Part shown: one piece after another, positions 6,419 through 41,908 of the stretch
Layout of the letters: each line of letters opens with the position of its first letter
How positions within the stretch are numbered: the stretch's first letter is position 1
Virus record (IMG/VR): IMGVR_UViG_3300045988_180522
Strand: one strand, 5' to 3'
DNA: 64,000 nt
From: a virus
The notes under the pieces: generated by a model
The model's database searches: none
Told to the model about the DNA's origin: nothing
What the model saw: only the letters and a program-made list of their open reading frames with translations
Position numbers and translations under genes: made by a program

Positions 6419-7084
6419 TTATTCCTTACTAAGAATTTTAATTTTACAGTCATTCAGTTCTTTACTGAATATGGAAAAGGCCATAGAAATCTCTTTCGGA
6501 TTCATAGACGACACATCCATATCTGCCAGTCTTTTCATTAGCTGTACAGATATGTTTCTTACAGATACTATACATTGATCGTATACAGCATTCATACCTA
6601 TATTTGAGGCCTCCTGGACCCTTTTGGCGTATTCCTGAGTCCTGTTTATTTCCAGTGATGATAACATATAGACCATAGTAATATTGGCCAGTACGTAGGA
6701 CATATGAGGTTTTACCTTGTCCAACTCTCTCTTCACCGAATAGAACAGTACCTTCAAATGTTTTCCGAATTCCTCATCAAAGTGTTCCAGCATATACGGA
6801 GTGTGCCTGTAGGCATATCCCCCCATCAGACTTCTTACTTTCGACCAATACAGACTGACATTGGAAATCATATTACATATATCCATCTTATTTTTCTGAC
6901 GAAAAATGCCGAGGCTTATACATCCTGATTTGATATCAGCTACATAGTTCCCTATTACATCTGCCAGGAACATATTACCATATACATAATTTGTCCGGAT
7001 ATCCTCACTAATAGCATCTGTGGCTTCTTTTATTATCTGAGTAGGTTTCATTTTTAATATCTTCATCAATTTTCCTAATAGCAC
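6419..7084 (-). CDS. hypothetical protein
   Basis: ORF track; last gene of minus block. Confidence 0.55.
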   Translation of the reverse strand: MLLGKLMKILKMKPTQIIKEATDAISEDIRTNYVYGNMFLADVIGNYVADIKSGCISLGIFRQKNKMDICNMISNVSLYWSKVRSLMGGYAYRHTPYMLEHFDEEFGKHLKVLFYSVKRELDKVKPHMSYVLANITMVYMLSSLEINRTQEYAKRVQEASNIGMNAVYDQCIVSVRNISVQLMKRLADMDVSSMNPKEISMAFSIFSKELNDCKIKILSKE

Positions 7085-7244
7085 CTCTTAAGGAAAAAGA
7101 GTGGGCGAAACCACAGCCATTCTTGTCTACAGCTTCCCATACCACTCTTTTTTCCGGAGGATAATACCCAATGCAGTTTATATGGATACCTTTATAAGTA
7201 TAATGACCCTTACTGATTTTAATAAGATTCTTATTATTTCTCAT
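7008..7244 (-). CDS. small hypothetical protein (overlaps neighbours; may be spurious)
   Basis: ORF track; 77-nt overlap with the 6419..7084 gene. Confidence 0.3.
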   Translation of the reverse strand: MRNNKNLIKISKGHYTYKGIHINCIGYYPPEKRVVWEAVDKNGCGFAHSFSLRGAIRKIDEDIKNETYSDNKRSHRCY

Positions 7245-7962
7245 GTTCCTCCTTTACTTCAAGTAATAAGTAATCCCTATATAGATCAATAAAATGAGTT
7301 CCTATGTAAAAAGCATCATCTCTTTTGCCACAACATAATTTAGGATCATAGGAGACACTGTATAAAGTATGACATATATCACCACATACAAGTTTACCTT
7401 TCTTCCACGTAAAAGATGGGTAAAATGCACATTGAGTACCAAGAGGGGTAAGCTTCCAATTATTGTTCAATATATTAGAGGCTTTATAGATCTGTATCAG
7501 TTTTAAACGTGCCAATCCAGATCTGTCATCACATTCTATATCAGGAACTGATCCTGTAATTTTACATGCATCCTCATAGGTCTTCACCAGTTCCTGGAAA
7601 CTCAATGTAAGTCTTTCTATTCCGAAGGTATCTTCAAGCTTTTTCTTAAATTCTCCGGATACACTTGAATAAATCATCCTAGCCTCTGATTCTGTTATTA
7701 GTAATGTTTTCATCTCGTCGTTTCTTTCTAATCCTTTTAGGAATACGTAACCTATTTTAGAAGGGGAATAAACTCTCATGGGATCTATATGGGTTCCTAA
7801 ATGTTGAACTCTGGATAATACCATCCATTGATCACTAGGGATACTCCCTTCATTTAACTCTTTAATGGCTTCATATATTTTAAGACAGTTTCTGGCGTCC
7901 TCTGAATAGTCTGTCTCTAATTGCTTTAATAATCGGTCCTTTAGTTCACTCATAGTCTTCAA
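7234..7962 (-). CDS. hypothetical protein
   Basis: ORF track. Confidence 0.55.
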   Translation of the reverse strand: MKTMSELKDRLLKQLETDYSEDARNCLKIYEAIKELNEGSIPSDQWMVLSRVQHLGTHIDPMRVYSPSKIGYVFLKGLERNDEMKTLLITESEARMIYSSVSGEFKKKLEDTFGIERLTLSFQELVKTYEDACKITGSVPDIECDDRSGLARLKLIQIYKASNILNNNWKLTPLGTQCAFYPSFTWKKGKLVCGDICHTLYSVSYDPKLCCGKRDDAFYIGTHFIDLYRDYLLLEVKEEHEK

Positions 7963-8090
7963 TTTTATTCATGCCATACTACCCTAATAGTATCAATATA
8001 ATCATCTTTATCTGCACTCTCCATAGCTTCTTCCCTTGTATTGTAGATACACCGGGCTGACACTATTCCAGCATTCCTATATATATTAAC

Positions 8091-14422: not shown

Positions 14423-15360
14423 CATTTTGTGTTACGAATATATCGATTCCATATATTCTCTTATCCTTTCAGATAAGGCCGGACTATCTCTTATAAAGAA
14501 ATTTCTCTCCATATACATCCGAGTTTTACTCCGGACATACTATTAATTTCTTTACCTGTGCGTTTCAATTCCTCTTGGAACTTACACCATTTCTGGTTAG
14601 TCTCTGAGCTCCACCTCTTATAGGAATAACAATTTAATGGGTATCTTGACAGTATATCAGACAAAATCTTAGCTCCTTTATATTTTTTGATCCTTAGATA
14701 ATAGAAAATTCTTCCATCCTTTTTTCTTTCAACCTCGATCTCAGGGAATACTCCTATCCTGTTAAAAAATGGGATAAAAACCTGTTCCTGATCCTCCCTG
14801 CTAAATCTATGAGTACTGATATTATAGTACATCTCATTTTTATGAAGGGATCCATTATCATATATCCATAGAGCTATTCCTAAGTCATCTATTTTATCCA
14901 TAGCATCTTTAAGACTAAGAGACCTTATAGAAGGCAGTATACGGCAGGACCTGGACCTCATACAATATATACTGGTCCTTGAATATCCGTTTTCTTCTAC
15001 AAAAGTCTTACTCTTAAACAAATCTCCCAGTAATTGTGATTTGAAGTCTATATACTCCTCATACTTACAATTAGTACAGTAATAGGTGCTATTACTATTT
15101 GATGTATATATACCTCCATCACCGATCTTTGCTGTCAAAAACACCTGTAATTGTTCTCTACTTAGAGAGTAAAGTTGCTGATTTTCCATTATTGTAGATT
15201 TATAGTATCGTACAAATATAGATAATATTATCAAGCATTCAACAGACATTTCTGTCTGTTTGTAGCTATTATCTCTTTAGGAGTTCCCAGCAGTTAACAC
15301 AGTTTTACTACGACAAGGTTTTTTAGGTCCATCGTAGGGTGTTATATAAAACTCCACTTT
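14423..15360 (-). mobile_element. putative group I intron 3 carrying LAGLIDADG endonuclease ORF
   Basis: interrupts polymerase motif C; inferred junctions keep U at exon end and G at intron end. Confidence 0.4.
14491..15249 (-). CDS. LAGLIDADG-type homing endonuclease (intron-encoded)
   Basis: motifs FLTAKIGDGGIY and LGIALWIYDNGS. Confidence 0.55.
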   Translation of the reverse strand: MSVECLIILSIFVRYYKSTIMENQQLYSLSREQLQVFLTAKIGDGGIYTSNSNSTYYCTNCKYEEYIDFKSQLLGDLFKSKTFVEENGYSRTSIYCMRSRSCRILPSIRSLSLKDAMDKIDDLGIALWIYDNGSLHKNEMYYNISTHRFSREDQEQVFIPFFNRIGVFPEIEVERKKDGRIFYYLRIKKYKGAKILSDILSRYPLNCYSYKRWSSETNQKWCKFQEELKRTGKEINSMSGVKLGCIWREISL

Positions 15361-15444
15361 ATCATACAGCCATCCTCTGCTCCTGCATTCTCTGAACATA
15401 TTGATCAATGCGAATCTAAGTATCTGAGCTCCGGTGCCTTGTAT
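15361..15444 (-). CDS. polA: family A DNA polymerase, exon 3 (IQGTGAQILRFALINMFRECRSRGWLYD)
   Basis: matches Pol I QGTAADIIKRAMI region; no start codon, so must be spliced. Confidence 0.4.
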
Positions 15445-16466
15445 CGTATTTATTAATAATTATTTAATATGTAATTTGCAAATGATTTTAAATCTTCTAC
15501 GGATGCGTTCTGTTTCATAGAATTAGCTAGCTTGGAAATAACCTGAACATTGCCTTTTACATATCCTTTATCAGGATCTATTCTATCTAAAGATATAGAA
15601 TAGTCAGATCCTCCTAGCACACCAACAATAAAAGGTTTCCCAAGTATAGGGCATCTGTCAGGAATATAAATATCCTCAGGAGTAAGATTAAATTCAATAT
15701 TATACATAGAGGCCCTCTTTCTGGCATTATTTAATAATGACATAATCTTACCACGTTCAGACTGCTGATATTTTACATCAATCCTCTTTAGATGTTCTGC
15801 ATAGTCAGGATTATGAGTTTTTCTTATTTTCTTATTTATGTTAGATCTTAAGATAGTAATCTCTCTATTCGGACATCTTTGTACTCTCTTCACAGCACAA
15901 GGTTTACAGACAGAATTTATTCTTCTTCTCTTTTTACTATAAGACCACCCAAATTCAGATAATGGAAGAAATCTATGACATTCATTACACCATTTTAAAG
16001 ATGGATCTGACGATCTTACATAATGGCCTCTAGGATTATAGGAAATTCCATTTTCCTCTGCTAGCCTCTTTAATCTCTCTACTTTCTGATTGTATACTCT
16101 TTCTTTTACGCATTCCTTACATACTACCTTATTAGTAGAGTAGAATTCAGAACTATCCTTTTCTTTTCCACAAATTTTGCAAATCATATCTATTATATTT
16201 TCTTTTCACAAACATAATAAGATATATACACAAAAGCAAATTATTAATTATCATTTTCATGATAGATCGGACTATATCATCTCCCTTCTCTTTTTAGAGG
16301 ATGGGGAGTGGGATGCTGTGGGCTCATCGTAATGTCCCTAGTCTCTGAACCTTCCTCAGTCTTCCCTGAGGCTCGGCTGCTGATTATCATACAGTTTTCT
16401 GCTTAGATTCCCAGCAATTCTTCCCATTATTCAAGCAATATTCCTATTGCAGGCTGCATACATTCT
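15445..16466 (-). mobile_element. putative group I intron 2 carrying HNH endonuclease ORF
   Basis: lies between Pol I AIN and MQGTAAD positions; junctions KFSVNYC|IQGT follow group I rules. Confidence 0.4.
15453..16187 (-). CDS. HNH homing endonuclease with N-terminal Cys-rich zinc-binding repeats
   Basis: C-terminal SLDRIDPDKGYVKGNVQVIS...AN HNH motif; CxxC pairs in N-terminal half. Confidence 0.7.
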   Translation of the reverse strand: MICKICGKEKDSSEFYSTNKVVCKECVKERVYNQKVERLKRLAEENGISYNPRGHYVRSSDPSLKWCNECHRFLPLSEFGWSYSKKRRRINSVCKPCAVKRVQRCPNREITILRSNINKKIRKTHNPDYAEHLKRIDVKYQQSERGKIMSLLNNARKRASMYNIEFNLTPEDIYIPDRCPILGKPFIVGVLGGSDYSISLDRIDPDKGYVKGNVQVISKLANSMKQNASVEDLKSFANYILNNY

Positions 16467-16961
16467 ACAGTAGTTCACCGAAAATTTCTCAGCTTCCGAC
16501 TTTCTTTTAAAGTAGTGTCTTACCTTTTTCACCATATCTCTCTCCTCCTGGTCCCTGGGGGACTTCTTTCCGGATCTGTCCTTTGGTATCTCTCTGTACT
16601 TGTTCCAGAATTCCTCTGTAAAGCTTTCTTTCAGCTCACACAGATCATCGAAATCATAGATATGGGCTCTGTGTCCGGTCTTAGGATTTATAATTACATA
16701 TCCCAGTCTCATAACTTCCTCTTTCCTCATATTCTGCCACGCTATAAGCCCTTTGAAACCAGATCTGTACCTGTTATCCAGTTCCTTTGCTCTTTCTTCA
16801 GAGAGACCGAAGTTCTGCATAAGGGTAGTCCATCCTCCCAGATAATTCCACAGGAACTCATACTTCTTTGCTGTATCTCTAAGATCACTGTGATATTTCT
16901 TAATATCTGCCGTGGACAGGCCTTCCAGTTCTTTGAATACCATCCGGCCAGTCAGTGAGTG
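16467..16961 (-). CDS. polA: family A DNA polymerase, exon 2 (fingers, motif B)
   Basis: HSLTGRMVF...RDTAKKYEFLWNYLGG aligns to DIHRATAAEVF...RRSAKAINFGLIYG; GYVIINPKTGHRAHIYDF ~ GYVETLFGRRRYLPDI. Confidence 0.65.
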
Positions 16962-18058
16962 CATCATATTTTGTTATCCCAAAGGCTTTTTATCCTCTGG
17001 TTCTATAAGTACTGGTAACCTCCTTATAGTTCGGCATATATTTTCACCCTCTTTAAGAGGGGCTGAGAACTCGTGGGCTGTTATATTTATTCAAGCCTAT
17101 GCTCTACAATACTTATAACCCTATTCGCAATGTTATAAGTTATCTCGGTGTTGAATAAGTTACGCTTTCTTGAAAGAAAAATAGTAGCATCTTTATACAA
17201 GAAATCATATATACATTTCTTTACCTTATCAGAAGCATTTATAATTACTTTCCAATAATCGGTAGTTTTTCCTTGAATATGATATATTCTATATGAGAAA
17301 TTTTTAAACCAACCCATTATCTGCTTCATAAAATGTTCTGAATTAAACACAAATTCAACAATACTACATCCCACATGGCCGTCTCCATCAAAGAAGCCTC
17401 TTATAAAATGTCTCCACAATTCCTCAGGTATAGAATCTTCAGGAATATAAAAACTTTTGTCTAAAGTTTTTAGTGGTCTGATATTATACTTAGCTCCTAA
17501 TGTATCGAACATATGTTCAGAAGTCCATTGTAATGTGTAACAAGGTTTTTTCTTTCTGTTATGAGTGTAATTTTTAACTAGTAATGAAGAATCAGGACAT
17601 ATATTACTATGTAATGCTTCTATAGCTTCCTTGTCATCTATAGTATTATTAAATGCTATCCTTTTCGTATAGTGTAAATTCCTCTTTTCTAATCTACAAC
17701 ACCCATCTGCTACTAAAAATCCAAGTAAGTAGGCTTTCAGTTCGGAATCTATATTATCAAAGAAATAGTCGTTAATTCTAAGTCCTCTTCTATCAAACTT
17801 AATATTATAGTACTTAAAACAATCACTTACTCTTTGGGAAGAAATACCAAACCGACTTCCTATTTCTCTCTGATTTTTACCTTCTCTCATCATTTGACAG
17901 GCTATTTCTATGTCAAATCTCTCTAAGCACTCTTTTTTAGTCATTTTATTTATCTATGGCAGTTATTAACTATGCAATAGTATAAATAAAAATCACCATT
18001 ACCATATTTTTCACCGATTTTTCTCAGTTTTTTACTATATATTACTATATAGGGAGAC
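16962..18058 (-). mobile_element. putative group I intron 1 carrying LAGLIDADG endonuclease ORF
   Basis: splits polymerase between DRLH and HSLTG; exon 1 ORF ends in stop 24 nt past junction. Confidence 0.45.
17087..17944 (-). CDS. LAGLIDADG homing endonuclease (double-motif)
   Basis: two canonical motifs YLLGFLVADGCC and FIRGFFDGDGHVG. Confidence 0.85.
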   Translation of the reverse strand: MTKKECLERFDIEIACQMMREGKNQREIGSRFGISSQRVSDCFKYYNIKFDRRGLRINDYFFDNIDSELKAYLLGFLVADGCCRLEKRNLHYTKRIAFNNTIDDKEAIEALHSNICPDSSLLVKNYTHNRKKKPCYTLQWTSEHMFDTLGAKYNIRPLKTLDKSFYIPEDSIPEELWRHFIRGFFDGDGHVGCSIVEFVFNSEHFMKQIMGWFKNFSYRIYHIQGKTTDYWKVIINASDKVKKCIYDFLYKDATIFLSRKRNLFNTEITYNIANRVISIVEHRLE

Positions 18059-19558
18059 ATGCAATCTATCTCCACTTCCTTCCAGGAACTCACTGATCAT
18101 AGCCTCATCCCTTGAAGCATCAGCCATAAGAACAGACTCTTCCCCTTTAACATCCTGTGATATCCACAGCCATCCCTCCCTTGGAATGAAGCATGATCTG
18201 GTTCTTTCATTCTTAGGAAGATTCAAAAGGTTCGGGTCTGTGGAACTGAATCTGGTGGTATCTGTTCCAAGCTGATGATAATTAGTATAGACCCTCCCGG
18301 TCCGGGGGTGGATATTTTCAAGGAATTTAGGCCCGTAAGTACTGACTACTTTCTCCAGTTTCTTGTATTTACAGTAGAGATCTACAATTTTATGGATATA
18401 CCTCTGCGGCTTTATTTTCTTGGCATCACAGGTCTTTTTAAATCCTGTGGGACTATCCTTGTCTTCTACCATAACATCACATCCCAGCTCCTCCAGCAGA
18501 GGGATTACCTGTCCTGAACTGGACCAGTTGATATCACATACATATCTTTCGGATTCATGAAACATATCGTACTGAGGATCCTCATAGATGTACGGATATT
18601 GCGACATTCTCTCATAGGCTATTTTCCTGTATTCCAGATTCCCGTCCTTAACTACCTTGTCCAGATCCGGCCTCCTCTTAAGTCTTTTCCTTTTTACAGG
18701 AACAGTCTTTCCTTTTACTTTCTTTGTCTTGTTGGAATCCTGGACATTGTTTGTAACCCATTCTTTCTGTTCCTCTTTGGACATGGAATAAGGATCGAAA
18801 TAAAGGATTTTCCCCGGAGACGGATGTTCCAGTGAATATTCTATTACAGCCTTATTAAGAGCTTCTACAGACTCCTTAAGATCCCTCATATCATCTTCCG
18901 CCTTCTCCATCCATTTTTCCCGGCTTACAATCACTCCGCACCATTCCATATAAGACAGAGGGGCAATAGTCATTCCTTCTATAGCAGCAGCAGTATACAA
19001 ATCCTGTCTTCTAAGCTCCTCTTCCTGCTTATCAGCTATCATAAGAAGATATTTCACATCATCACATGCATACACTATTACCTCAGGAGTAAGGCCTCTG
19101 GAAGCTATCTCCGTACGTACGGACTTATCCATACTGACTCCTGCATATCTGTGGGCCAGTCCCTGTAAACTTGCTGAAGGATAAGAAGGGTACCCTAGAT
19201 ATATCAGCTGTTCATTCAGGAACAGGTCATACATATTCATAATACATATTCTGTGATTATGCAGGTATTTGGCATCAAACTTACCATTAACTACTATAAA
19301 CTGTATGTCCTCAGATTCCAGCAACTCCTTATATAGTTGTATATCAATAGTATAAGTGTCAACAAGGATTTGTATATCAAAGTTTCCAAACTGTATACAC
19401 CTGATATTCCCTGAATGACAGTCCAGTGAAGTAGTCTCAGTATCGAATCCTATTCTTTTCATACTGCGGAGGATATCCAGGGATTTCTCCACAGACATCC
19501 TCCCGTATTTATCAGAGGTTCCGAACAGGTCAGTATTATTACTTACTACATACCTCAT
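18059..19558 (-). CDS. polA: family A DNA polymerase, exon 1 (3-5 exonuclease domain and palm motif A)
   Basis: Exo I GFDTETTSLD, Exo III YACDDVKYL, RFSSTDPNLLNLP, motif A DVKGEESVLMA...GDRLH. Confidence 0.8.
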
Positions 19559-20156
19559 TTTTTTTTATTTTATGCCATACTATATACTTATCAAAATCTA
19601 TCTTCCACTTGTGCTTGTCGAAGAATTCACTTCCGAGGATTCCTGTAACATTAAGGCCCTCCCTGTTGCTGAACTCTCTCAGTCCTTTCAGGTCTGAGAC
19701 CAGAAAGTCCTCATTGAATTCCATATTCCTGATATTAAATCTGACCTGCATACCATAGGAATCCATAATAGCTCCGTTCCCCACCTGTATCTTATCTCCT
19801 TCGGCTATTGTCTTCCCTTTCAGCTTATCCTTTATAGTATACAGGAATTGAATATCAAGGCAGTTCTGGTGAGCTCCGGAATCCAGAAGGAACCTGCATT
19901 TCTTACCATACAGGTGAACAATGATCATCGGAGTCTTTGTCCTTTCGAAATAATCCTCAAAAGAGAAAAACTCCCATTCTTTTGTATTCTCATTGTTCCT
20001 GTTCAGATCCCTTGAGATTCTCAGGGTAATAAGATATACCGGCCACAATGCCAGTAATAAAAATGCCAGACATACCATCCCCATATTACCTCCTTCCGGT
20101 GGAGCCGAATCCTCCTCTGGACTCATTTCCCAGATGTTGTACTTCCACAAACTCAA
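19539..20156 (-). CDS. membrane-anchored retropepsin-like aspartic protease
   Basis: N-terminal TM helix; [13 protein letters not shown] (D-S/T-G-A) and ILGSEFF motifs. Confidence 0.55.
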
Positions 20157-20294
20157 TTTTCTTTGTGAACAACCACTTTATCTTCTGCCATGGTGTTGCA
20201 AACTGGTTAGGCTGTATCCTGAACTGTGCTATCCAGTCCCCTTTTTTATCTATATACATCTCTGTTCTGGCAGAATGCAGTTTGTATCTTATTT

Positions 20295-21323
20295 TCATAT
20301 TACATTAATGTTAGTAATTTCTCTTCTGTAATTATTTACATATGTGTCATAGGAATAGTTGAATATTCCTGTACTGATATGCCATCGGCATTCCCTATAC
20401 AGCCGTACCCATCCCTTGTATACTGTGCCTTTATCGTCCACAAATCCGTTTGTATTCAGTGACATCCTGAAATCCCACTGTATAGGGCCGGGAGAGCTGG
20501 TATTAATAGTGATGAAGGAGAATACAGGGTCTACAGTATATTCCCTGAAATCAGGATCCTTCTCTATAATACTCTTCAACCCTTGTACATACATGCAGGC
20601 CTGGATGTAATACCCGTACCTGGTTACAGAGTCAGGGAAATATTCTTCCCATTTTCCTGTAGTTTTCAGGTCATAGATCTTTATGGTTTTCCTGATATGG
20701 TTGACGATGATAAGGTCAGGCATAAATTTATACTCACCGACATGTTTCACATTGGCTATAAACTTCAGCTGGGTAAACATTTCTGTTTCTCCGTTGTTAC
20801 TGCAACGGGGATATACAGGGCTGTCAAGGAGTATCTCGGAAGCTCTCAGCAATGACTCATACTGATCTACTGACAGTATCTTCTTTCCCTCAGTCAGCAG
20901 GCTGTAATACTTCCCCGCAGACTTTACTATCTTATCCACCCTAGTGTCATCCTTCCAGTTAGTTTGATAGTCATGCATATTTGCAGCAGTGACAATAACC
21001 TGTTTCGGGATTGAATCCAGTGCTTTACCCGGAAAGGCATTGTGAATGGAATCTGCTATACTTTTAAGTTTGTCTCCCGGCATATCACAGTCGGCCAGGA
21101 AAGAAAAGTTCTTCCTGATGTATACAGGGCCTTCAAATACTATTCTGTCCATCAATGCCCCTCTCTCCAGATACCTGTCTGTATCCGTATCATGGTCAAG
21201 GTATTTCTTTATAGCCTGAGGTCCTTCCCTGTTGTAGGCACTGAGCATTGAATAGGATATCAGATCCATAGATCTGTATTCCTCATCTGTTATATTTTTT
21301 GACAGGTCTTTAAAGCTTTTCAT
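20295..21323 (-). CDS. PD-(D/E)xK nuclease (lambda Exo/YqaJ- or Cas4-like)
   Basis: MPDLIIV...KIYDLKTTG motif. Confidence 0.5.
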
Positions 21324-21538
21324 ACTAATTGTTTTAAAATGTGTTCAGCTCTGTCCAGGGCATCCATATCCACACTGATATGCAGATCAGGATTCCTGTT
21401 GAATTTCTCTCTGATCAGGCTGATAATATTGATTACGGTCTCATATTCCCTGTTTTTCAGGGAATCCACTGATGCTCTCAGGTAATTTACTGGCATTGAC
21501 TGTATCAGGCTGATGATTTTCCGTTCTTCTTCATTCAT
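21320..21538 (-). CDS. small hypothetical protein
   Basis: ORF track; ATGA coupling both sides. Confidence 0.45.
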   Translation of the reverse strand: MNEEERKIISLIQSMPVNYLRASVDSLKNREYETVINIISLIREKFNRNPDLHISVDMDALDRAEHILKQLV

Positions 21539-22029
21539 GTCTTCATTTTGTTTTTAATTTCTTCAATACACTTCTTCATGCTGTGTACCGTCGTTACTTC
21601 AAAAAACCTCACCTCCAGGCCCTGATGGTCTGATTTGTTCAGGTAATCTATAAACAGTTTTCTCTTTACAGGGTATACATCATTCCTGAATCCTTTTACC
21701 TCTATAATATCCAGAACATTACCATGCCTGTATACAAAATCAGGGGTATATGTAAGGTCACGGAGTTTCCTGATATCAGGCTGAAAGACAGCTGCCTGTC
21801 CTCTTCTGCTGTATGTACTCCATACCTGTACATTATCAGGGTAGTCCCCTTTCATGAGTATTATCTTTTCAGGCTCATACTCCAGTCTTATTCCTTCTCT
21901 CAGGGCATACCTGTACATATTCAGTTCAGCCTTCGACTTAAACTGTATACCATCGAAGAATCCGGGGGTGGCATTTTTAATCTTCCTGTTCTTATCAGAA
22001 TGGGAGATCGTCTGTTTCTTCTTCATCAT
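21535..22029 (-). CDS. VRR-NUC-like PD-(D/E)xK endonuclease
   Basis: YTPDFVY...LDIIEVKG motif. Confidence 0.5.
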   Translation of the reverse strand: MMKKKQTISHSDKNRKIKNATPGFFDGIQFKSKAELNMYRYALREGIRLEYEPEKIILMKGDYPDNVQVWSTYSRRGQAAVFQPDIRKLRDLTYTPDFVYRHGNVLDIIEVKGFRNDVYPVKRKLFIDYLNKSDHQGLEVRFFEVTTVHSMKKCIEEIKNKMKT

Positions 22030-22708
22030 ATTCAGGTAATAACCATTTGAATTCAGTCCCCATATTCTCCTTCATGAACCTGTTTATCCTGGCAAACGGA
22101 TCATCTGTCATTCTGGTATTACTACGGGCAAAATAAGCAGGATGTTCACATTTCAGTATACATGCCGCATTCTGCACTGCCGGAATGAAGGAGGCTGCCT
22201 GAGCCCCGAAGAACAGCCATATTACATCTGTTCTGTCGGAAGAAAACATTCTGATAAAGGTATCTGTAAATTCCCTCCAGGCAGCCTGATGGCTACCCGG
22301 GGAATTTACCTTTACAGTAAGGGCTGAATTTATCATCAGTATTCCCTGAGACACCCATGACTCAAGAGTGGGATCGAATCTGGCTTCATCAGAAGGCCTG
22401 TAAGAAGAGATCTCAGGATGCAGGATACATTCCTTCAGTATCTTTAAAGAAGGACTTAAATCTTCGGATTTGGTACCTTCTTTATTGCCGAACAATATTC
22501 CCGTAGCTACTCCTTTTTGAGGGTAGGGATCCTGTCCCACTATAACAAGCCAGGTCCTGGAGGGGTCTGTAAGATGAAAGGCACGGAATACCTTATCTAT
22601 TTCCGGACACATATTATCTGTATCCTTATCTATAGATGTGAGGGTATTCATGAGCACCTGTTCATTCATATAGACTCCCCATTTACCTAATAATTCATTT
22701 TTGATCAT
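21995..22708 (-). CDS. ung: uracil-DNA glycosylase (family 1)
   Basis: VIVGQDPYP...GLAF-like water-activating loop motif; C-terminal HPxxx motif. Confidence 0.8.
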   Translation of the reverse strand: MIKNELLGKWGVYMNEQVLMNTLTSIDKDTDNMCPEIDKVFRAFHLTDPSRTWLVIVGQDPYPQKGVATGILFGNKEGTKSEDLSPSLKILKECILHPEISSYRPSDEARFDPTLESWVSQGILMINSALTVKVNSPGSHQAAWREFTDTFIRMFSSDRTDVIWLFFGAQAASFIPAVQNAACILKCEHPAYFARSNTRMTDDPFARINRFMKENMGTEFKWLLPEYDEEETDDLPF

Positions 22709-23270
22709 ACAATTGATTGATTATAACATTATAATTCTTACTGAGATACGCAGTTACAAACTGATCTGCATTCTCCAGAGCCTTCATCTTTACTGAAGGG
22801 GTCACAACAGTATACTGTTCCTTATCGACAGCCTTTACAGAAAGAGTAGTATAGACGGAATGGATAGTGTATTCTAACGATACAGCTGTATTTATCAGTC
22901 TTGTCATATCTGCTTTTGATAATACAGGAGCATCATAATTTATATAAATCTCTTTTTTATCAATAAAGACAGAGAGGATGACCTCCTTGTCATATATAGC
23001 TGTCCCTGCTATACACAGCATATTGGATCCTTTATACTGTAGTATGTATGGACTATTCCTACTACTACTTATAGTGTGTATAGCCTCCTTCAGAGATTTT
23101 GCCACCATTATACGATCTATACATGGAATGTAGTACTTACCTTCATTGTTACCGACCTGTATCAGGTAATCATGCATATCGTTATTATTCGCATGATATA
23201 CACGTATTAGTGGAGAGGTGTTACAGTAAGCTCCATCCAGTATATTGCTTAATGTATACATTTCCATCAT
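22695..23270 (-). CDS. hypothetical protein (immediately downstream of E1-like gene)
   Basis: ORF track; 4-nt overlap with E1-like gene. Confidence 0.5.
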   Translation of the reverse strand: MMEMYTLSNILDGAYCNTSPLIRVYHANNNDMHDYLIQVGNNEGKYYIPCIDRIMVAKSLKEAIHTISSSRNSPYILQYKGSNMLCIAGTAIYDKEVILSVFIDKKEIYINYDAPVLSKADMTRLINTAVSLEYTIHSVYTTLSVKAVDKEQYTVVTPSVKMKALENADQFVTAYLSKNYNVIINQLYDQK

Positions 23271-23962
23271 TCGATAAATTTAGTGGTCATCAAAGGACCG
23301 TGATACTCCATAAAGAAGGGGGCATATCTTTCCGACTGCATGTATACCTGACACAGCTTGTTGACAAATACATTGGCTATCATTCCTCCTATCTGCATAG
23401 CCATAAATGCAGTCTGTTTATAGGAGCAGATCTGTTCCTCAGCCTCTGCATCACTGAAAAGATACTGCTCTTCATATCTTTCCATATTCTCCTTCTCACT
23501 GCTTTCCATACATATAATCTGATACATTTCGGCACTTAGTCTGCCATCTATAAACACAGACTTACTTTTGCTATCAACATTACGTTTCCAGGCTTCATAA
23601 ACTTCCCTTCTTGATTCCATATTATCAAGGCATGATATAACATGTCCTGAGAATACTTTGTTCCTGGTTACCCTCTCCCTGTAGCATCCTGTCCATGGTA
23701 TAACCCTGAATGCCTCCAATACTCTCTTCATAGATACAGCCTTACTTTGTCCTATAAGACTATCGAAATACATCTGTCCGGCCATATTCTCAGGAGAAAC
23801 TACATCGGGGTCTATAAGATTCATACTCTTTACACCGAGCTTTCCTATAGCAAAAGAGGTCCAGCTTCCTATACCTCCGAGTCCTACAATATTCGCATGT
23901 TGGTATTTTAACATTTCGAACCATACAGCCCCGGAGAATCTTTGTGTACAATTTTCATTCAT
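23267..23962 (-). CDS. E1-like adenylyltransferase (ThiF/MoeB/HesA family)
   Basis: NIVGLGGIGSWTSFAIGKLGVKSMNLIDPDVVSPENMAGQ matches ThiF Rossmann + SNLNRQ region; VISCLDNMESR matches DxxDN. Confidence 0.8.
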   Translation of the reverse strand: MNENCTQRFSGAVWFEMLKYQHANIVGLGGIGSWTSFAIGKLGVKSMNLIDPDVVSPENMAGQMYFDSLIGQSKAVSMKRVLEAFRVIPWTGCYRERVTRNKVFSGHVISCLDNMESRREVYEAWKRNVDSKSKSVFIDGRLSAEMYQIICMESSEKENMERYEEQYLFSDAEAEEQICSYKQTAFMAMQIGGMIANVFVNKLCQVYMQSERYAPFFMEYHGPLMTTKFIE

Positions 23963-24975
23963 AATGTCTTCAATTTACTTTCAACTAATTCAAGGATAGG
24001 ATCCAGACTGTCATCCTCATAATCACATATATACCTGATTACCTTTTCCAGGATCTCCTTCTTCTTATACTTAGGATCTATATCCTCCCACATCCTGTAG
24101 TACGGCGGATTACTGTCGGCCTCATCGATAAGTTCGGATACTATACTGTCTACATTATCCAGACGCAGGAATCCGGATAATACCTTACATACTCCTGTAT
24201 CAATGTCATTGTTCTGGCAGGAAGCTCTTTGTATAATACCCTGTGATATATCGGTGCTTTTCATATAAGCTGAGGGCCGGTATGGTATAATACTCTTATA
24301 GTCCCGATGTTCAGAAAGCCAGTCTCTGTTTGCTGTCATACATGGTGCCTTACGTCTTGATATTTCCCTTGCCGTAGATAAGGGAGATTCAGGGAATTTA
24401 AGGAAGGATTTCGGATATTTTACATCCAGTGAGTAAGTCTCTATCTGAGTAGAGGTAAACTTCTTCTCACCTGTATATATGGTATTTCCGTCAGGATCTG
24501 TGTATGATCCTTTCAAAGTACCATTATAAACTACTTTCCTTGTTATTCTGGCCTCGTAGGTATGACTTGAATCTACCACCAGTGACAGGAACCAGTTCTT
24601 TTCCTTCCCTTCACTTGCCAGGGTCTGCATATCTTCCCCTGAGAAGAAAGCCCCCATGCGGTGATGTGAGTGTATGAGCCCTATACTGCTGCCCTCAAGT
24701 TCATTATCAGATATGAAAGCTGCTATGTACCTGTTAACATCATTACTGTCATATTGAGTATGTACGGATGTTCCTATATCAAGTATGAGAATATCCTTTA
24801 CTACAGCGGAAATCTTTCCTTTTCTGTCTTTAATACTGTAAAACAAAACTCCTGACCACTCAGTGTCAGGAAGTTCGAAGATAGCCCAATCTATCTTATT
24901 CTGAATGTCCCTGGGAATTTCTATATTTCCTATATTTCTCAGGGATTGCTCGTTCTGATGTATATTTTTCTGCAT
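23959..24975 (-). CDS. JAB/MPN (JAMM) metalloprotease-domain protein with C-terminal extension
   Basis: upstream Glu (DTEWSG) then HSHHRMGAFFSGED = HxHx7Sx2D JAMM zinc motif. Confidence 0.75.
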   Translation of the reverse strand: MQKNIHQNEQSLRNIGNIEIPRDIQNKIDWAIFELPDTEWSGVLFYSIKDRKGKISAVVKDILILDIGTSVHTQYDSNDVNRYIAAFISDNELEGSSIGLIHSHHRMGAFFSGEDMQTLASEGKEKNWFLSLVVDSSHTYEARITRKVVYNGTLKGSYTDPDGNTIYTGEKKFTSTQIETYSLDVKYPKSFLKFPESPLSTAREISRRKAPCMTANRDWLSEHRDYKSIIPYRPSAYMKSTDISQGIIQRASCQNNDIDTGVCKVLSGFLRLDNVDSIVSELIDEADSNPPYYRMWEDIDPKYKKKEILEKVIRYICDYEDDSLDPILELVESKLKTL

Positions 24976-26017
24976 AAGCGGTTAATAAAGATTCAACAAT
25001 ATCGACGAATACACTATACACCTTTGGTTGTATAAAGTATCGGAAATCGGGAATAATATCATCTTTCGGTTCTACACGGAGTCTTACAGGACTGCCTTTA
25101 AACATGAACAGTATACGTTCAATATCCGGGTCAATGTCAGTTATTTCAGGTGCATTATACCTATATATATATCCGAAACTATCCTGAAATCCTCTATATA
25201 AGGGTATATCCAAGTAACAGTCCTCAGCTAAATCTGATAATATAACTGCCAGTTCTTCCGGTGTATAACTGAGCTTTACCCTTCCGTCACATTCTGCAAG
25301 CTTTATATTACCTGATACCAGAAAGGTTTTTACAAGATACTTTATATCCGGTATACTTACAGATACGTTACTTGTATCCGAATACTGTGTATATATAAGT
25401 CTGTCGGACTTTTCTATATTCAGATCTGCCATATACTGATAGGGGCCTCCGGATACAGACTCCACATGTATGTACTGATCCAGTAATACAGGAAGAGTCT
25501 CTGTAAATCCAGGTTCCCATATAGATTTCATAGTACTTATTACAGTACTCAGGGCTGTTTTCCCAAGACAACATGTCCTAAATGCCCCTGACAGGTCTAA
25601 GTTACTGTGACAATGTGAATGGATATACCCTCTGCATGCCTCGATATATGAGTAGGTACCTCTGTTCATTCTTATGCCTTCTACGGACAGCATAAGGTTG
25701 TTAAATGTAAGTTTGATATACAGATCCTTTATAGTATGCGTTTCTTCTACTTCATTCTGTATAATAACCTCCGGGCGGTATATAATAATTGTAAATGCTG
25801 GTGTGTTCAAACCTTCGCTATGTCTACTCAGTATCTCGTTTATGGCATCATCGAATGTGTCACATTTCTGTATAATATCTTCATACATAGAAAGTAATTT
25901 TATCCTTTCAGAACAGACATCCTCATCTACATACTCCTCCCCGAAATAATCATTAAAGGAGGAGAGGAGGCTATCGAATCTCCGATATACCTCCTCAATG
26001 GCCTCATCTACTGTCAT
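24896..26017 (-). CDS. hypothetical protein (373 aa) upstream of JAB gene
   Basis: ORF track; coupled to neighbours. Confidence 0.5.
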   Translation of the reverse strand: MTVDEAIEEVYRRFDSLLSSFNDYFGEEYVDEDVCSERIKLLSMYEDIIQKCDTFDDAINEILSRHSEGLNTPAFTIIIYRPEVIIQNEVEETHTIKDLYIKLTFNNLMLSVEGIRMNRGTYSYIEACRGYIHSHCHSNLDLSGAFRTCCLGKTALSTVISTMKSIWEPGFTETLPVLLDQYIHVESVSGGPYQYMADLNIEKSDRLIYTQYSDTSNVSVSIPDIKYLVKTFLVSGNIKLAECDGRVKLSYTPEELAVILSDLAEDCYLDIPLYRGFQDSFGYIYRYNAPEITDIDPDIERILFMFKGSPVRLRVEPKDDIIPDFRYFIQPKVYSVFVDIVESLLTAYAEKYTSERAIPEKYRKYRNSQGHSE

Positions 26018-26697
26018 CTCAGGTACTTAAGTTCTTCCTTCAATTCTGACAGAAGGTTTTCGGTTTCATTCTTCCTGACAGATCCCTCCCTGATACTATT
26101 AATGTCAGTATCACTCAGGATTCCCTTATTATACAGGCAATTCAGCAGGCTATCCAGTCTGGCTGCGGACCATACAGATTCTGTACCACAGGGTTCCGGC
26201 TTATTTTCTTCCTCTTTGTCCTTCTCCATAGTATCATACACTGCCTCCAGGACCTCCTCCTTCTTATCCTGTACCTTTTTCTTATTACCTGATGTACGTT
26301 CCATTTTTGTTATGAAGGCTGTAAGGTTATCACTTGATACCTGTGTGTAATTCCTTCCAAATTCTTTTTTCACATCCTCCTGTAAACCTCTTGAGACAAT
26401 CATTTGGTTAATTTCTTTTCTGGATAATGTTCCGGAAGATACTTTCTTGTTCGGAGTCATTAGGATAATAGACAATTCACGTGTAGGATTCCCACGGAAC
26501 ATCACAGTGTCAGGAAGAAGGCTCTGGTCATCCGTAAGCATAGTTCTTGATCTTCCTTCATGGAATTCCTTACCACTATAATTGATTCCGGCATTATCCA
26601 GCTCCCTTTTCAGTTCTCCAAGGGTTCCTGCTGTACTTTCAATCTGTTTTGCCCAGCTAACTGTCTCATCTGTAATTCTGATAATTCTACTTTCCAT
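26014..26697 (-). CDS. hypothetical protein
   Basis: ORF track. Confidence 0.5.
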   Translation of the reverse strand: MESRIIRITDETVSWAKQIESTAGTLGELKRELDNAGINYSGKEFHEGRSRTMLTDDQSLLPDTVMFRGNPTRELSIILMTPNKKVSSGTLSRKEINQMIVSRGLQEDVKKEFGRNYTQVSSDNLTAFITKMERTSGNKKKVQDKKEEVLEAVYDTMEKDKEEENKPEPCGTESVWSAARLDSLLNCLYNKGILSDTDINSIREGSVRKNETENLLSELKEELKYLR

Positions 26698-26722
26698 AAT
26701 CTGATTGTTTTAATATTGATTG

Positions 26723-27754
26723 TTAAAATGGTATATCATCCGGGTCCTGGGGGAGTCCTATCATATCCCTGAGTACCCGGGTGGCCAGTTTCCTTCCATG
26801 ATTTTTTGTAAGGTCACTGGGATCTTTTGATTTGTATAAAGACGGGATTTCTATCTGATGCAGGCTATATTCATCACACAGCTTCTCAGAGTACATCCTG
26901 CCGTAATTGATTTCCTTATTGAAATCATTGTCGAACAGCACATGTATATTTTCGAACCTTTGTTTCAGTGAAGATATAACATGAGGCTTAGGGACATATC
27001 CTTCACCTTGCAGACTTGTCGAGGGTATACCTGTGCAACACCATACACACATGGCATCCTTCCGTGAGGAAGTGATTACCAGATGGTTTCCTCTTTCAGG
27101 AAGCAGTGTCCACAGGTCCCATACAGACCTGTCATGCTTGCTTATCCATTTAAGATGGTCACTGAAAGGCTGGTAAATCTTAATGGTAGGATTTCCGTCC
27201 TTGAATTCAACATATACATAGGCATATTTATCGGCAGGCATAGAAGTAGTCTTTCCTTCCCTGATAAAGAATATGGTGCTGATAGGATAGGTATTCGAGA
27301 TATCCAGAAACCACTTATCCACTCCCTGCTTTTCCCAGAACTCATAGTCATAGGGCCTCCAGTCTCTGGTTTTCACCCTGACATCCGACCCCTGGTGTGA
27401 CAGAGGGGATCCCTGTTTTCCGGAAACAGATCCTGACAATTTTTTTTTGTCAGGAACCCTCCTGATATCAGACAAATCCCTGCATAACCTCCTGAATGCC
27501 TCCTGTGCAGTACAGGCCCACATCAGGCTCAGGAGATCCAGTACCCTGCCTGAATCTCCTCTTGCCTGGTCTTTGAACCTGATATGCCCGTCCATACCCT
27601 GAAAGATGCTCAGTGAGGGTTTCCTGTCAGGTCTGTACGGCGCATTTATTATACATGGAAGTTCCGTGATTCCCAGGTAATATGAGATTATCTGAAATTC
27701 ACTTGCTATTCTGTATAGACTGTTAAGATCATCAGGACGGGCAGTCAGTATCAT
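26723..27754 (-). CDS. primase-like protein (Toprim-like motifs); tentative
   Basis: VITSSRKDAMC and VLFDNDFNKE resemble Toprim E..D and DxD elements. Confidence 0.35.
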   Translation of the reverse strand: MILTARPDDLNSLYRIASEFQIISYYLGITELPCIINAPYRPDRKPSLSIFQGMDGHIRFKDQARGDSGRVLDLLSLMWACTAQEAFRRLCRDLSDIRRVPDKKKLSGSVSGKQGSPLSHQGSDVRVKTRDWRPYDYEFWEKQGVDKWFLDISNTYPISTIFFIREGKTTSMPADKYAYVYVEFKDGNPTIKIYQPFSDHLKWISKHDRSVWDLWTLLPERGNHLVITSSRKDAMCVWCCTGIPSTSLQGEGYVPKPHVISSLKQRFENIHVLFDNDFNKEINYGRMYSEKLCDEYSLHQIEIPSLYKSKDPSDLTKNHGRKLATRVLRDMIGLPQDPDDIPF

Positions 27755-27770
27755 ATTATGCTGTTTTTTT

Positions 27771-28634
27771 TTATTTTTTCACCCACTTTGATTTTACTTC
27801 TTCCACTGTGGCGGCTTTTGTTTCAGGAGCCTTGAATGTGGTAGGAGTCTCTGTATATTCCTTAAACACTTCATCTCCGAACTCCACATTCTGGTACATT
27901 CCCGCTGCCTTACATCTGGTGATGTTATTCAGGATGAAAGAACAGTTACGGGCTGCTTTTCTGCCGAATTTAGCAGGGAAGAAAGTCTGATAGTTATTGT
28001 TGTTACTGTCTTTCTGTACTCCGAACCACACCTTGGTACAGTTATCAGGGAACAGGGAAAGAGCTTCCACTACTTCTGAGACATCCCCGGAGAAATAGTC
28101 ACCGATTCTTTCCAGTTGCAGAAGTGCAGTTTCAGGATCTTCAATCTCCTTCCATTCCTTATCCTGCGTCATATACATACGGGAGGGCACATTCAGGTGG
28201 GTACGGATAAATTCCAGTAATGAATCCTCCCCTGAATAGGCCTGTCTTACCCCCTCAGGTGAGAAATTCATATTACCGGGGATAACACAGTTGTCATAGT
28301 CTTCCTGTGACAGCCATGCTGTTTCCCCGTAGGCATTTACGCACTGACACTTATTTCCGGCAGAATTGAGCCTTGCTGTATCCCTCAGGAAGAATTTCAC
28401 AGGCAGGATATCCTCTACCCCTTCAATATCAGGCTTGGTATACAGGGTAATATTCACCCATCTCACACCATCCTTTTCCCCGGTATATACAGGTTCCTTA
28501 TCAACCTTCCACCCGAATTCCTTTTCCAGCTCGTCCTTTGAAGGATTTACCAGCAGCACCTTCACCGGAGCCACTCCGGTATATAACTTCCTTGATACAG
28601 ATTCTTTCGACTCTTGTGCTTGTCCTATTTTCAT
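27771..28634 (-). CDS. hypothetical protein
   Basis: ORF track. Confidence 0.5.
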   Translation of the reverse strand: MKIGQAQESKESVSRKLYTGVAPVKVLLVNPSKDELEKEFGWKVDKEPVYTGEKDGVRWVNITLYTKPDIEGVEDILPVKFFLRDTARLNSAGNKCQCVNAYGETAWLSQEDYDNCVIPGNMNFSPEGVRQAYSGEDSLLEFIRTHLNVPSRMYMTQDKEWKEIEDPETALLQLERIGDYFSGDVSEVVEALSLFPDNCTKVWFGVQKDSNNNNYQTFFPAKFGRKAARNCSFILNNITRCKAAGMYQNVEFGDEVFKEYTETPTTFKAPETKAATVEEVKSKWVKK

Positions 28635-28653
28635 ATCTTCTTACTTTAAACTG

Positions 28654-29061
28654 TTAGTCTATTCTGATCCATTTTGATGCTACTGTTTCTTCTGAAGCCT
28701 GTTCTTTTTCCCCTGCTTCCGGCTCCTCCTTACTATTTTCTGTTTCTTCTGCCGGGGCTTCCTCTTTACTTTGTTCCTGTGGCTCTCCTTCTGTTTTATT
28801 CTCCACCTCCCGGGCCTGGGGAGTGGGTGTTTTAAGCATTTCGAAGATCAGGGCTTCTACTTCATCGGTAAATTCATTTCCTGCAAATGCAATAATGGCC
28901 TTGTTAATAGAATCCATGCTTTTGACTACTTCTTCTTTCTCTGCCATCAGATCTTCAATCTTTTTGTTCAGGGAATCAATTTTGCGGCATAGTGGTTTCA
29001 AACCTAAAATCATTCTCTTAACCTGGGCTTTCTTATAAATACCCATTTTCTTTTCTTCCAT
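28654..29061 (-). CDS. acidic coiled-coil protein
   Basis: E/K-rich heptad-like sequence. Confidence 0.5.
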   Translation of the reverse strand: MEEKKMGIYKKAQVKRMILGLKPLCRKIDSLNKKIEDLMAEKEEVVKSMDSINKAIIAFAGNEFTDEVEALIFEMLKTPTPQAREVENKTEGEPQEQSKEEAPAEETENSKEEPEAGEKEQASEETVASKWIRID

Positions 29062-29120
29062 AATTTAAAGCTTTAAATAATTAATAATAAATATATAACT
29101 CTGAGTTATCTGAGTACAGT

Positions 29121-29798
29121 TTAATAATATTCCTCAATAGCCTTGAACACGATATTCAGGTCATTCGGGATGGTATCTTCTGAGAACATATCTTCCGGTG
29201 TCTTGGCAGGAATTTCCACTCCATTCAGTCTCATTTTGTGGGTATAGAATTTAAATTCCGGCTTTCCGTCTTTCCCGAATGAAGGGGAGCAATACAGGCA
29301 GATGGCCACTACCTCTAATGGATTATAGTGCTCATCCACCATCCGGCCCACAGTTTTACATTTCTTTCCTACTATGGCCTTGTCATTCACTACGTCATCA
29401 TCATGCATCATCATACATACGATGAGGTCCCTGCGTGCATTCTCCACTGTTTCCATAATAGTCTGGAAGTGCAGTGCTATCTCCGTGAATTTCGAGTATC
29501 CCACCACATTGACTTTCTGGAACAGTTCCTTCTCCATGATGTATCTGGCATCATCAATAATGATATATTTGATGTGCGGGCCTTCATCAGAAATGGTCTG
29601 TATAGTGGATGCTATACTATCCCATGCTGTCAGGTGAAGGAGGTTATCCTTGTCTTCCGAGAAGATTTTCTCCGATCCTCTGAATGGCAGTGGTTTGTTT
29701 GTCACATTAATAATTACCGTACTTTCCGGATTGAGGTTCTTTACTGACCGGGTTTTCCCGGACCCTGTAGGACCTACTACAATCATCATTTTTCCCAT
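29121..29798 (-). CDS. P-loop ATPase (AAA_24/Sak4-like size class)
   Basis: Walker A VVGPTGSGKT near N-terminus; Walker B IIIDDARY. Confidence 0.55.
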   Translation of the reverse strand: MGKMMIVVGPTGSGKTRSVKNLNPESTVIINVTNKPLPFRGSEKIFSEDKDNLLHLTAWDSIASTIQTISDEGPHIKYIIIDDARYIMEKELFQKVNVVGYSKFTEIALHFQTIMETVENARRDLIVCMMMHDDDVVNDKAIVGKKCKTVGRMVDEHYNPLEVVAICLYCSPSFGKDGKPEFKFYTHKMRLNGVEIPAKTPEDMFSEDTIPNDLNIVFKAIEEYY

Positions 29799-41817: not shown

Positions 41818-41890
41818 GGCCTGGTAACTCAATGCATAGAGTGACTCCGTCCTAAGGAGTAAGTTGCGGGTTGGAGTCCCGCCCGGGCCA
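41818..41890 (+). tRNA. tRNA-Arg (anticodon CCU) with atypical D- and T-loops
   Basis: 73-nt cloverleaf: 7-bp acceptor GGCCUGG/CCGGGCC (one G-U), 4-bp D stem, 5-bp anticodon stem, loop GUCCUAA, 5-nt variable loop, 5-bp T stem; T-loop TTGGAGT has G at position 56 and D-loop lacks GG. Confidence 0.55.
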
Positions 41891-41908
41891 CTGGTAAAAG
41901 TAAGATAT

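Follow-up and report, generated by a model that had tools for sequence, protein, structure and literature searches.

Here we describe a block of genes at positions 22695-26697 of the IMG/VR virus record IMGVR_UViG_3300045988_180522, a stretch of 64,000 nt that is referred to throughout as the window. The block sits within a long minus-strand operon, in the DNA-replication module of a crAss-like phage. Positions 22000-27800 are 97% identical to Dulem virus 41 (PP511520.1), a circular crAss-like genome of 92.9 kb from lemur faeces, and the primase genes of Steigviridae crAss-like phages are distant matches to the region. After the primase gene come five open reading frames (ORFs), designated here genes A, B, C, D and x, and then the gene for uracil-DNA glycosylase (UDG) (Table 1). 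The original prediction, made from the sequence, had recognised an E1-like (ThiF) adenylyltransferase next to a JAB/MPN protease, proposed a machine for conjugation or deconjugation of a ubiquitin-like protein (Ubl), and suggested that a flanking ORF might supply the beta-grasp or E2-like partner. Both partners appear to be present directly upstream, the 227-aa product being a predicted beta-grasp Ubl and the 373-aa product E2-like, and the proposal is now supported, at the computational level, by four parts, their motifs and their linkage. All five ORFs lie on the minus strand at the coordinates first assigned to them.

Table 1. Features of the block and of its surroundings in the window
Feature	Coordinates	Strand	Description
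Gene A	26014..26697	-	227 aa; precursor with predicted Ubl domain and C-terminal 'cargo'
Gene B	24896..26017	-	373 aa; E2/UBC-like, candidate catalytic Cys150
Gene C	23959..24975	-	338 aa; JAB/MPN+ (JAMM) metallopeptidase with family-specific C-terminal helical domain
Gene D	23267..23962	-	231 aa; minimal single-domain E1-like adenylyltransferase
Gene x	22695..23270	-	191 aa; lineage-specific ORF in the variable fifth slot between E1 and UDG
Primase	26723..27754	-	C-terminus …DPDDIPF
UDG	21995..22708	-	C-terminus …EETDDLPF
dUTPase	20086..20298	-	70-aa remnant
tRNA-Arg (CCT)	41818..41891	+	single gene

The ThiF/MoeB Rossmann signature that had been read in gene D (GLGGIGS…IDPDVV…ENMAGQ) is present, and residues 16-228 match Pfam ThiF (PF00899) with an E-value of 1.9e-20 and 73.5 bits, the cut-off being 28.1. 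The protein has the G-x-G-G-I-G-S nucleotide loop, R8, D51, K74, D113 and R118, and its homologues, some of which carry N-terminal extensions of 50-150 residues, share invariant G27, G29, D51, K74, D113, R118 and Cys179. Against the PDB, the gene D profile gave similar scores for Uba1, MccB, Uba5, PaaA, ThiF, MoeB and Cap2 (E 2.5e-14 to 2.5e-8), with further matches to the active adenylation domains of Uba6, Uba7 and NAE and to TcdA. The 231-aa single domain lacks zinc CxxC pairs, a rhodanese domain and a CYS domain, whether inserted or separate. A scan of IMG/VR with the E1 alignment returned 509 loci, 80 of which were retrieved, 77 with enough upstream sequence for the rest of the block to be assessed; the motif C-[ST]-x-K-Q-T, which includes Cys179 (C-S-Y-K-Q-T in the window), is found in all 80 homologues. 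Cys179 is placed between the IDGR strand and the next helix, presumably at the end of the crossover loop. This is the location described for Cys250, the catalytic cysteine of the minimal homodimeric E1 UBA5, and in an alignment made by eye Cys179 appears to be equivalent to it and to MoeB Cys187 and ThiF Cys184.

The JAMM motif of gene C is intact, as had been claimed, reading E39…H102-S-H104-x7-S112-x2-D115. E39, H102, H104, S112 and D115 are invariant in nine homologues with 21-26% identity, and the JAMM residues are present in 76 of 78 IMG/VR ORFs, the remaining two being fragments of 117 and 284 aa. Pfam Prok-JAB scored 22.9 bits on this protein, slightly below its cut-off of 25, and the PDB matches are CSN5/JAMM1/Rpn11-like chains (E 4e-4). 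The family is large: at 90% identity it forms at least 3,708 clusters, most of them on contigs of ~100 kb. By analogy with characterised systems, the gene C product is predicted to cut the gene A product after Gly89, and possibly also removes the Ubl from its targets.

A Ubl-like protein next to a JAB peptidase has a precedent in the tail-assembly modules of lambda and T1, where a Ubl with a C-terminal Gly and an extra C-terminal domain (TAPI) adjoins TAPK (gpK) (PMC1779556), and genes A and C might likewise act in virion or tail assembly. However, the lambda-type module has NlpC/P60 and is without E1 and E2, whereas Pfam found no NlpC/P60 domain in gene C, E1 and E2-like proteins are both present here, and the block belongs to a replication operon, with the structural genes on the other strand. 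The gpK-like reading, which had been named beforehand as one that would overturn the proposal, is effectively refuted by this genomic context and is hardly tenable.

Residues 1-89 of the gene A product (nt 26431..26697) are confidently modelled as a ubiquitin-like beta-grasp, the fold expected of a ubiquitin-like modifier. The fold is followed by a disordered tail, N-K-K-V-S-S-G89, and then by T90. In an alignment with homologues from ΦcrAss001, DAC15, the cr-series phages, a rodent-faeces phage, Flavobacterium phage Fpv3 and metagenomic contigs, the N-terminal domain is conserved over ~90 residues and terminates in K-K-I/V-x-S-G in every case. The invariant glycine stands in a disordered K-K-x-x-S-G linker and is followed by Ala, Thr or another small residue; the JAB cleavage site is predicted at G89|T90. 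Beyond it the family has a conserved three-helix segment (residues 93-135 in the window protein), a variable acidic linker and one or more C-terminal helices. The three-helix domain could be called HeH/SAP-like by eye only, since 20 members gave no SAP or HeH match in Pfam, and the gene A profile had no match among PDB sequences. In the uncultured phage cr126_1 (Kolpuevirus hominis; L015:3335-4261), the three-helix domain of the Ubl-fusion protein is followed by an inserted C-terminal domain of ribosomal protein L7/L12 (residues 158-220; PF00542, 46.4 bits, cut-off 25.9), which implies that the 'cargo' behind the Ubl glycine is modular.

Gene B has no match in Pfam, NCBIfam or PADLOC, and in PHROGs it matches only phrog_15310, a family without an assigned function. 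An exhaustive HMMER search nevertheless assembled a family that, clustered at 50% identity, has at least 3,148 clusters (2,704 with E ≤ 1e-10), and nearly all of its members are 360-440 aa long. In ~155 representatives with a median of 22% identity to the window protein, N88-E89, Y131, H133, S134, H135, C150, G152, E186, S187 and P192 are 99-100% conserved, and the signature Y-x-H-S-H…C-x-G is present in 77 of 77 IMG/VR copies. The E2-like portion covers approximately residues 1-215 (nt 25373..26017). Its predicted secondary structure consists of a long N-terminal helix, a helical insert, three long strands (75-119), the H-S-H loop, Cys150 and helices at 155-184, an order that fits the E2 topology and a UBC-like fold. 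H133-S-H135 stands 14 residues ahead of C150-x-G and would occupy the position of the E2 HPN motif, although it reads HSH and not HPN. The C-terminal alpha/beta domain (~220-373) may serve in substrate recognition. By sequence, neither this E2-like family nor the Ubl family of gene A corresponds to a described family.

A possible distant counterpart of genes D and B was observed in the Xanthomonas jumbo phage PhiXhv-12 (L011:3244-6618), in which a related 227-aa ThiF lies between DNA ligase and topoisomerase genes, downstream of an ORF of 892 aa that is rich in Cys at its termini. This ORF has the motif I-H-P-H-x13-C-L-G, which resembles I-H-S-H-x14-C-L-G in gene B. Phages of Erwinia and further Xanthomonas phages have the same E1. 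The ThiF and the 892-aa ORF may be an E1 and E2-like pair, more distantly related, of jumbo phages.

The conservation of the E1-JAB pair in related phages, which had been proposed as a check, extends to the whole set of four genes. The order primase-A-B-C-D-(variable)-UDG is kept in 77 of 77 IMG/VR loci with an upstream flank. A tblastn search of 50,697 phage records located E1 in 83, gene B in 74, JAB in 52, gene A in 45 and gene x in one. Of the 74 records with gene B, 29 are Flavobacterium psychrophilum Fipvunavirus phages and 45 are Bacteroides or uncultured crAss-like phages, Dulem virus 41 and bajarodcaudo virus 1 being two of these. That JAB and gene A were counted less often is due to divergence, since local hidden Markov models (HMMs) recover the complete set of four in Fpv3. 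The ΦcrAss001 block runs Gp79-Gp78-Gp77-Gp76, with Gp75 and the UDG, Gp74, after it; the cassette also occurs, with the same A-B-C-D order, in DAC15 and in the Flavobacterium Fpv phages, in the replication module and beside UDG. In Fpv3 the UDG gene comes before the block rather than after it while A-B-C-D remains intact, which argues that the four genes form a functional unit. The recurrence of the block in hundreds of phage contigs is far beyond chance. Among 185,579 GTDB species genomes, the full block was found only on contigs of metagenome-assembled genomes (MAGs) that resemble binned phage DNA, the other matches being ordinary ThiF/MoeB genes; as far as these searches reach, the cassette is confined to phages.

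The predicted translational coupling through ATGA start/stop overlaps was confirmed at the 227/373, 338/231 and 231/191 junctions and fails at 373/338, where the two genes share an 80-nt out-of-frame overlap (24896..24975); the 191/UDG overlap is 14 nt. In every lineage examined (L008, L009, L010, L013-L015), the E2-like gene runs out of frame into the start of the JAB gene for 50-125 nt, in contrast to the 4-nt ATGA overlaps at the other cassette junctions.

Several loci depart from the simple arrangement. In L006 (9247-12944), JAB and ThiF are each split into two ORFs, and a LAGLIDADG-type ORF lies on the opposite strand between the JAB halves, while L003 (~6724-8001) has an insertion of ~1.3 kb between JAB and ThiF. 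JAB is split in one of the 80 IMG/VR loci and UDG is in two pieces in four of them. These interruptions may be introns or homing-endonuclease insertions. Also, a divergent but complete A-B-C-D-e-UDG array was found at 15069-29746 of a 639,747-bp contig from a long-read 'Bacilli bacterium' MAG (L102, JBMNLZ010000002.1), which is either a chimeric or mis-binned assembly or a case of the module in a much larger replicon.

We propose that genes A-D constitute a self-contained, phage-encoded Ubl conjugation cascade, a reading to which we assign a probability of roughly 0.6. The predicted folds and the motifs of the four proteins, their invariant residues, their strict co-occurrence and their gene order were computed directly. 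That they form a functional unit is argued by the order kept in 77 of 77 loci, the intact A-B-C-D of Fpv3, motifs in essentially all copies and the translational coupling. Cleavage, thioester relay, isopeptide formation and the identity of the target are postulated by analogy with the bacterial systems Bil, Bub and type II CBASS. In this cascade, expressed together with the replication genes, the JAB peptidase would first cleave precursor A after Gly89 to yield an 89-residue Ubl and a 138-residue helical/acidic fragment. The minimal, presumably homodimeric E1 would then use ATP to adenylate the exposed Gly89 and pass the Ubl as a thioester to its own Cys179 and from there to Cys150 of the gene B product, with His133 and His135 in the role of HPN. 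Finally, the gene B product, its C-terminal domain replacing an E3, would transfer the Ubl to a lysine of a target protein of the host or the phage, and the JAB may also reverse the conjugation. It could be speculated that the targets are replication and repair proteins or DNA-associated host factors, because the position between primase and UDG is fixed and because a helical, possibly nucleic-acid-binding segment is fused to the Ubl.

Several points weigh against this cascade. The best beta-grasp matches of gene A are DIX polymerisation domains, so the fold alone is no proof of a conjugatable Ubl. A candidate for the Ubl that was to be sought in related phages was found, with its invariant glycine, but its tail is S-G and not the anticipated G-G. 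The invariant H-H-C-E set of gene B could instead be a metal site, and gene D is much smaller than the BilD E1 of Bil. Furthermore, no E3 and no target is assigned in the cascade, and its chemistry is predicted. One alternative is a scheme of maturation only, in which the JAB frees the C-terminal helical/acidic fragment of A (with the L7/L12-like domain in some phages), the beta-grasp is a chaperone or a DIX-like polymerising module, and E1 and B perform unrelated chemistry, such as adenylation-dependent small-molecule or peptide modification of the MccB/PaaA/TcdA type with B as a metal enzyme. The evidence as a whole disfavours this scheme, as it does the sulfur-carrier and lambda-type alternatives, and we regard it as quite unlikely.

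A sulfur-carrier pathway is a further alternative. In ThiS/ThiF, MoaD/MoeB, CysO/Mec+ and QbsE/QbsD, as is predicted for the phage block, a minimal E1 with a crossover-loop cysteine acts with a beta-grasp partner that ends in glycine, and in the CysO/QbsE type the carrier is trimmed by a JAB. On this model, the JAB would expose the Gly, E1 would adenylate it, and a thiocarboxylate would donate sulfur to a nucleotide, a DNA base or a cofactor, with Cys150 as a persulfide relay. But the E1 is far under the NCBIfam equivalog cut-offs, with 54 against 159 for ThiF and 34 against 266 for MoeB, and there is no MoaD/ThiS-type partner, both of which speak against the sulfur-transfer outcome that had been named in advance as refuting the proposal. 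Moreover, neither the block nor its conserved flanks contain a rhodanese, a cysteine desulfurase, a ThiG/MoaE-type acceptor or any other sulfur gene. The block always includes a UBC-like protein, an invariant fourth partner that such systems do not need, and the tail is K-x-S-G on a fusion protein and not a free G-G. The MoeB/ThiF sulfur pathway was rejected on cut-offs and context, and we consider a sulfur carrier of any kind improbable.

The conjugation cascade leaves room for more than one purpose, and counter-defence is compatible with it. The phage JAB might strip host Ubl conjugates, such as those made by Cap2 on cGAS in CBASS or the Bil Ubl on tail fibres, or the phage Ubl, E1 and E2 might saturate or mis-tag the host machinery. 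Phage-host conflict is the setting of every bacterial E1/E2/JAB system characterised (PMC10557695, PMC11601596, 10.1101/2023.09.04.556158). The PADLOC matches of gene D are solely to Cap2-type E1-E2 models, if weakly (34 bits, E1 part only), and the block is expressed with the early/middle replication genes. On the other hand, counter-defence states a purpose rather than a mechanism and overlaps with conjugation. A JAB alone would suffice for pure deconjugation, yet four genes are co-conserved, and the constant placement between primase and UDG, in Bacteroides and Flavobacterium phages alike and so across great evolutionary distances, is more like a core replication function than a shuffling anti-defence island. 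As a separate explanation it seems unlikely.

In gene order and presumed working, the phage cascade is closest to BilABCD, especially Type II/6C, with a 'CEHH' E2 and Gly|Ala trimming (PMC10557695; 10.1101/2023.09.04.556158). Bil genes are ordered Ubl-E2-JAB-E1, BilC cleaves BilA at Gly97|Ala98, and conjugation requires the E1 and E2 cysteines (PMC10557695). The phage block has the same complement of four genes in the same one-operon order, with residues beyond the predicted reactive Gly of the Ubl, where the Bil JAB trims at Gly|Ala, and a divergent E2-like protein with conserved Cys and His which, no E3 being present, is presumed to pick the target. Bil, however, is a bacterial anti-phage defence while the block lies in the replication operon of a lytic phage. 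BilD is a large IAD-AAD-CYS E1 and gene D a single adenylation domain; the Bil E2 has C…E…H…H, whereas gene B products, at 360-440 aa, have an extra C-terminal domain and H-S-H…C; and the helical/acidic 'cargo' after the phage Ubl is ~140 residues long, compared with 1-9 residues in Bil. Profile searches of the PDB, which holds BilA-D chains, found no BilA, BilB or BilC match for genes A, B and C. Membership in Bil was rejected for want of both a multidomain E1 and sequence homology to BilA-D.

In BubAB, the Ubl is made as the N-terminal part of a fusion protein, from which the JAB of the operon frees it after a conserved Gly (PMC11601596), so that Bub (6E.1, Type I) resembles the phage block in making its Ubl as a fusion and in having a minimal E1, a feature also of Cap2, UBA5 and ThiF. 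Bub differs in that its Ubl is fused to E2 and its JAB to E1, where the phage encodes four separate proteins. Its oxyester chemistry uses no catalytic cysteines, whereas both candidate cysteines are invariant in the phage block, and it includes a DUF6527 serine protease, which the phage block does not. The block is not a member of Bub. With Cap2/Cap3 of type II CBASS it shares a minimal-type E1 adenylation domain (Cap2 PDB match, E 3e-9) and a JAB partner. Cap2, however, is an E1-E2 fusion that conjugates the CD-NTase itself, while the phage E1 and E2-like proteins are separate and have a dedicated beta-grasp Ubl. No CD-NTase or effector was found in the block or its flanks, and without these and the fusion the block was not assigned to CBASS type II.

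By sequence comparison, the PRTRC ThiF subfamily of plasmids and integrative and conjugative elements is among the nearest to gene D (TIGR03736, 47.8 bits), and the HMM of the phage E1 family scores 55 bits on the Deinococcus PRTRC ThiF. PRTRC is likewise a cassette of mobile elements; its function is not known, and it includes an E2-like 'protein B'. The ThiF score is nonetheless below the cut-off of 144.75, there is no ParB, and the PRTRC proteins of the Deinococcus neighbourhood gave no matches to A, B or C. Only ThiF is related, and PRTRC was rejected as a parent family.

In public annotation, E1 appears as 'thiamine biosynthesis protein' or ThiF family protein (ΦcrAss001 Gp76: 'thiamine biosynthesis protein, ThiF'), the JAB as a metalloprotease-domain or hypothetical protein (Gp77: 'metalloprotease domain containing protein'), and genes A and B as 'hypothetical'. 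A full-text search found no description of ThiF or ubiquitin-like systems in crAss-like phages or Crassvirales, in a literature coverage that is incomplete, so that an earlier mention is possible; a 2026 preprint remarks in passing that one gut-phage protein family resembles UBA5. What is new here is a putative phage-borne E1-E2-JAB-Ubl system, placed in a replication module and built on undescribed E2-like and Ubl families.

Taken more broadly, it may be that a large group of lytic Bacteroidota phages, including ΦcrAss001, DAC15 and Fpv, has a complete Ubl cascade as a fixed part of its replication module and tags host or phage proteins with it, a generalisation we would put at slightly under an even chance; host defence proteins, or factors of the replisome or of repair, may be the targets. 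If true, this would be the first complete pathway of E1, E2, Ubl and deubiquitinase encoded by prokaryotic viruses, resting on two undescribed families, of which the E2-like one has at least 3,000 clusters at 50% identity. The prokaryotic E1/E2/JAB/Ubl systems characterised so far (CBASS type II, Bil, Bub) are host weapons against phages, whereas here a kit of this type is on the phage side, as a cassette whose place next to primase and UDG is strictly kept, both in phages that rank among the most abundant of the human gut and in relatives from other hosts. Four large families that now carry the labels 'hypothetical', 'metalloprotease' or 'thiamine biosynthesis protein' would also gain functions, and the evolutionary picture of ubiquitin systems is extended by a highly divergent family of E2-like proteins and by an architecture in which the Ubl is part of a fusion. 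Should proteins be conjugated, the question becomes what the phage 'ubiquitinates', and why; cultured pairs exist in ΦcrAss001/B. intestinalis, DAC15/B. thetaiotaomicron and Fpv/F. psychrophilum.

The 191-aa product of gene x had been counted among the coupled proteins of the block but is not conserved, its occurrence being limited to Dulem virus 41 and to four IMG/VR contigs that are nearly identical. It has no family, PDB or phage homologue beyond these near-identical genomes, and a PADLOC MTase_II match (18 bits) was treated as noise. The fifth slot is occupied by a Gp75-like family in most Steigviridae-type loci, by the 191-aa ORF in the lineage of the window and by other ORFs elsewhere, and neither hhalign (probability 0.4%) nor an iterated HMM search connected gene x with the Gp75-like family. 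Gene x is lineage-specific and probably not a core member.

The DNA-metabolism setting next to UDG and nucleases had been read correctly. Upstream on the minus strand lie, in order, a helicase, a Sak4-like ATPase, two unknown genes and the primase. Downstream of UDG come a DUF1064 endonuclease, a 72-aa ORF and a PD-(D/E)XK exonuclease, and next the dUTPase remnant, a retropepsin-like protein and DNA polymerase A.

The primase and UDG both end in acidic tails (Table 1), and in Fpv3 a 362-aa ORF after ThiF (L009:8666-9754) ends in …VEDLPF. These tails resemble the acidic C-terminal tail of the bacterial single-stranded DNA-binding protein (SSB), DDDIPF, and this likeness suggests that several replication proteins may dock on a common hub through an SSB-tail-like peptide. 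The dUTPase gene, which encodes 154 aa in Dulem virus 41, has in the window an in-frame deletion of 252 nt between the short repeats GDWI and GDRI, with the loss of 84 central codons and so of over half of the protein. The lone tRNA-Arg gene lies in the plus-strand half of the window.

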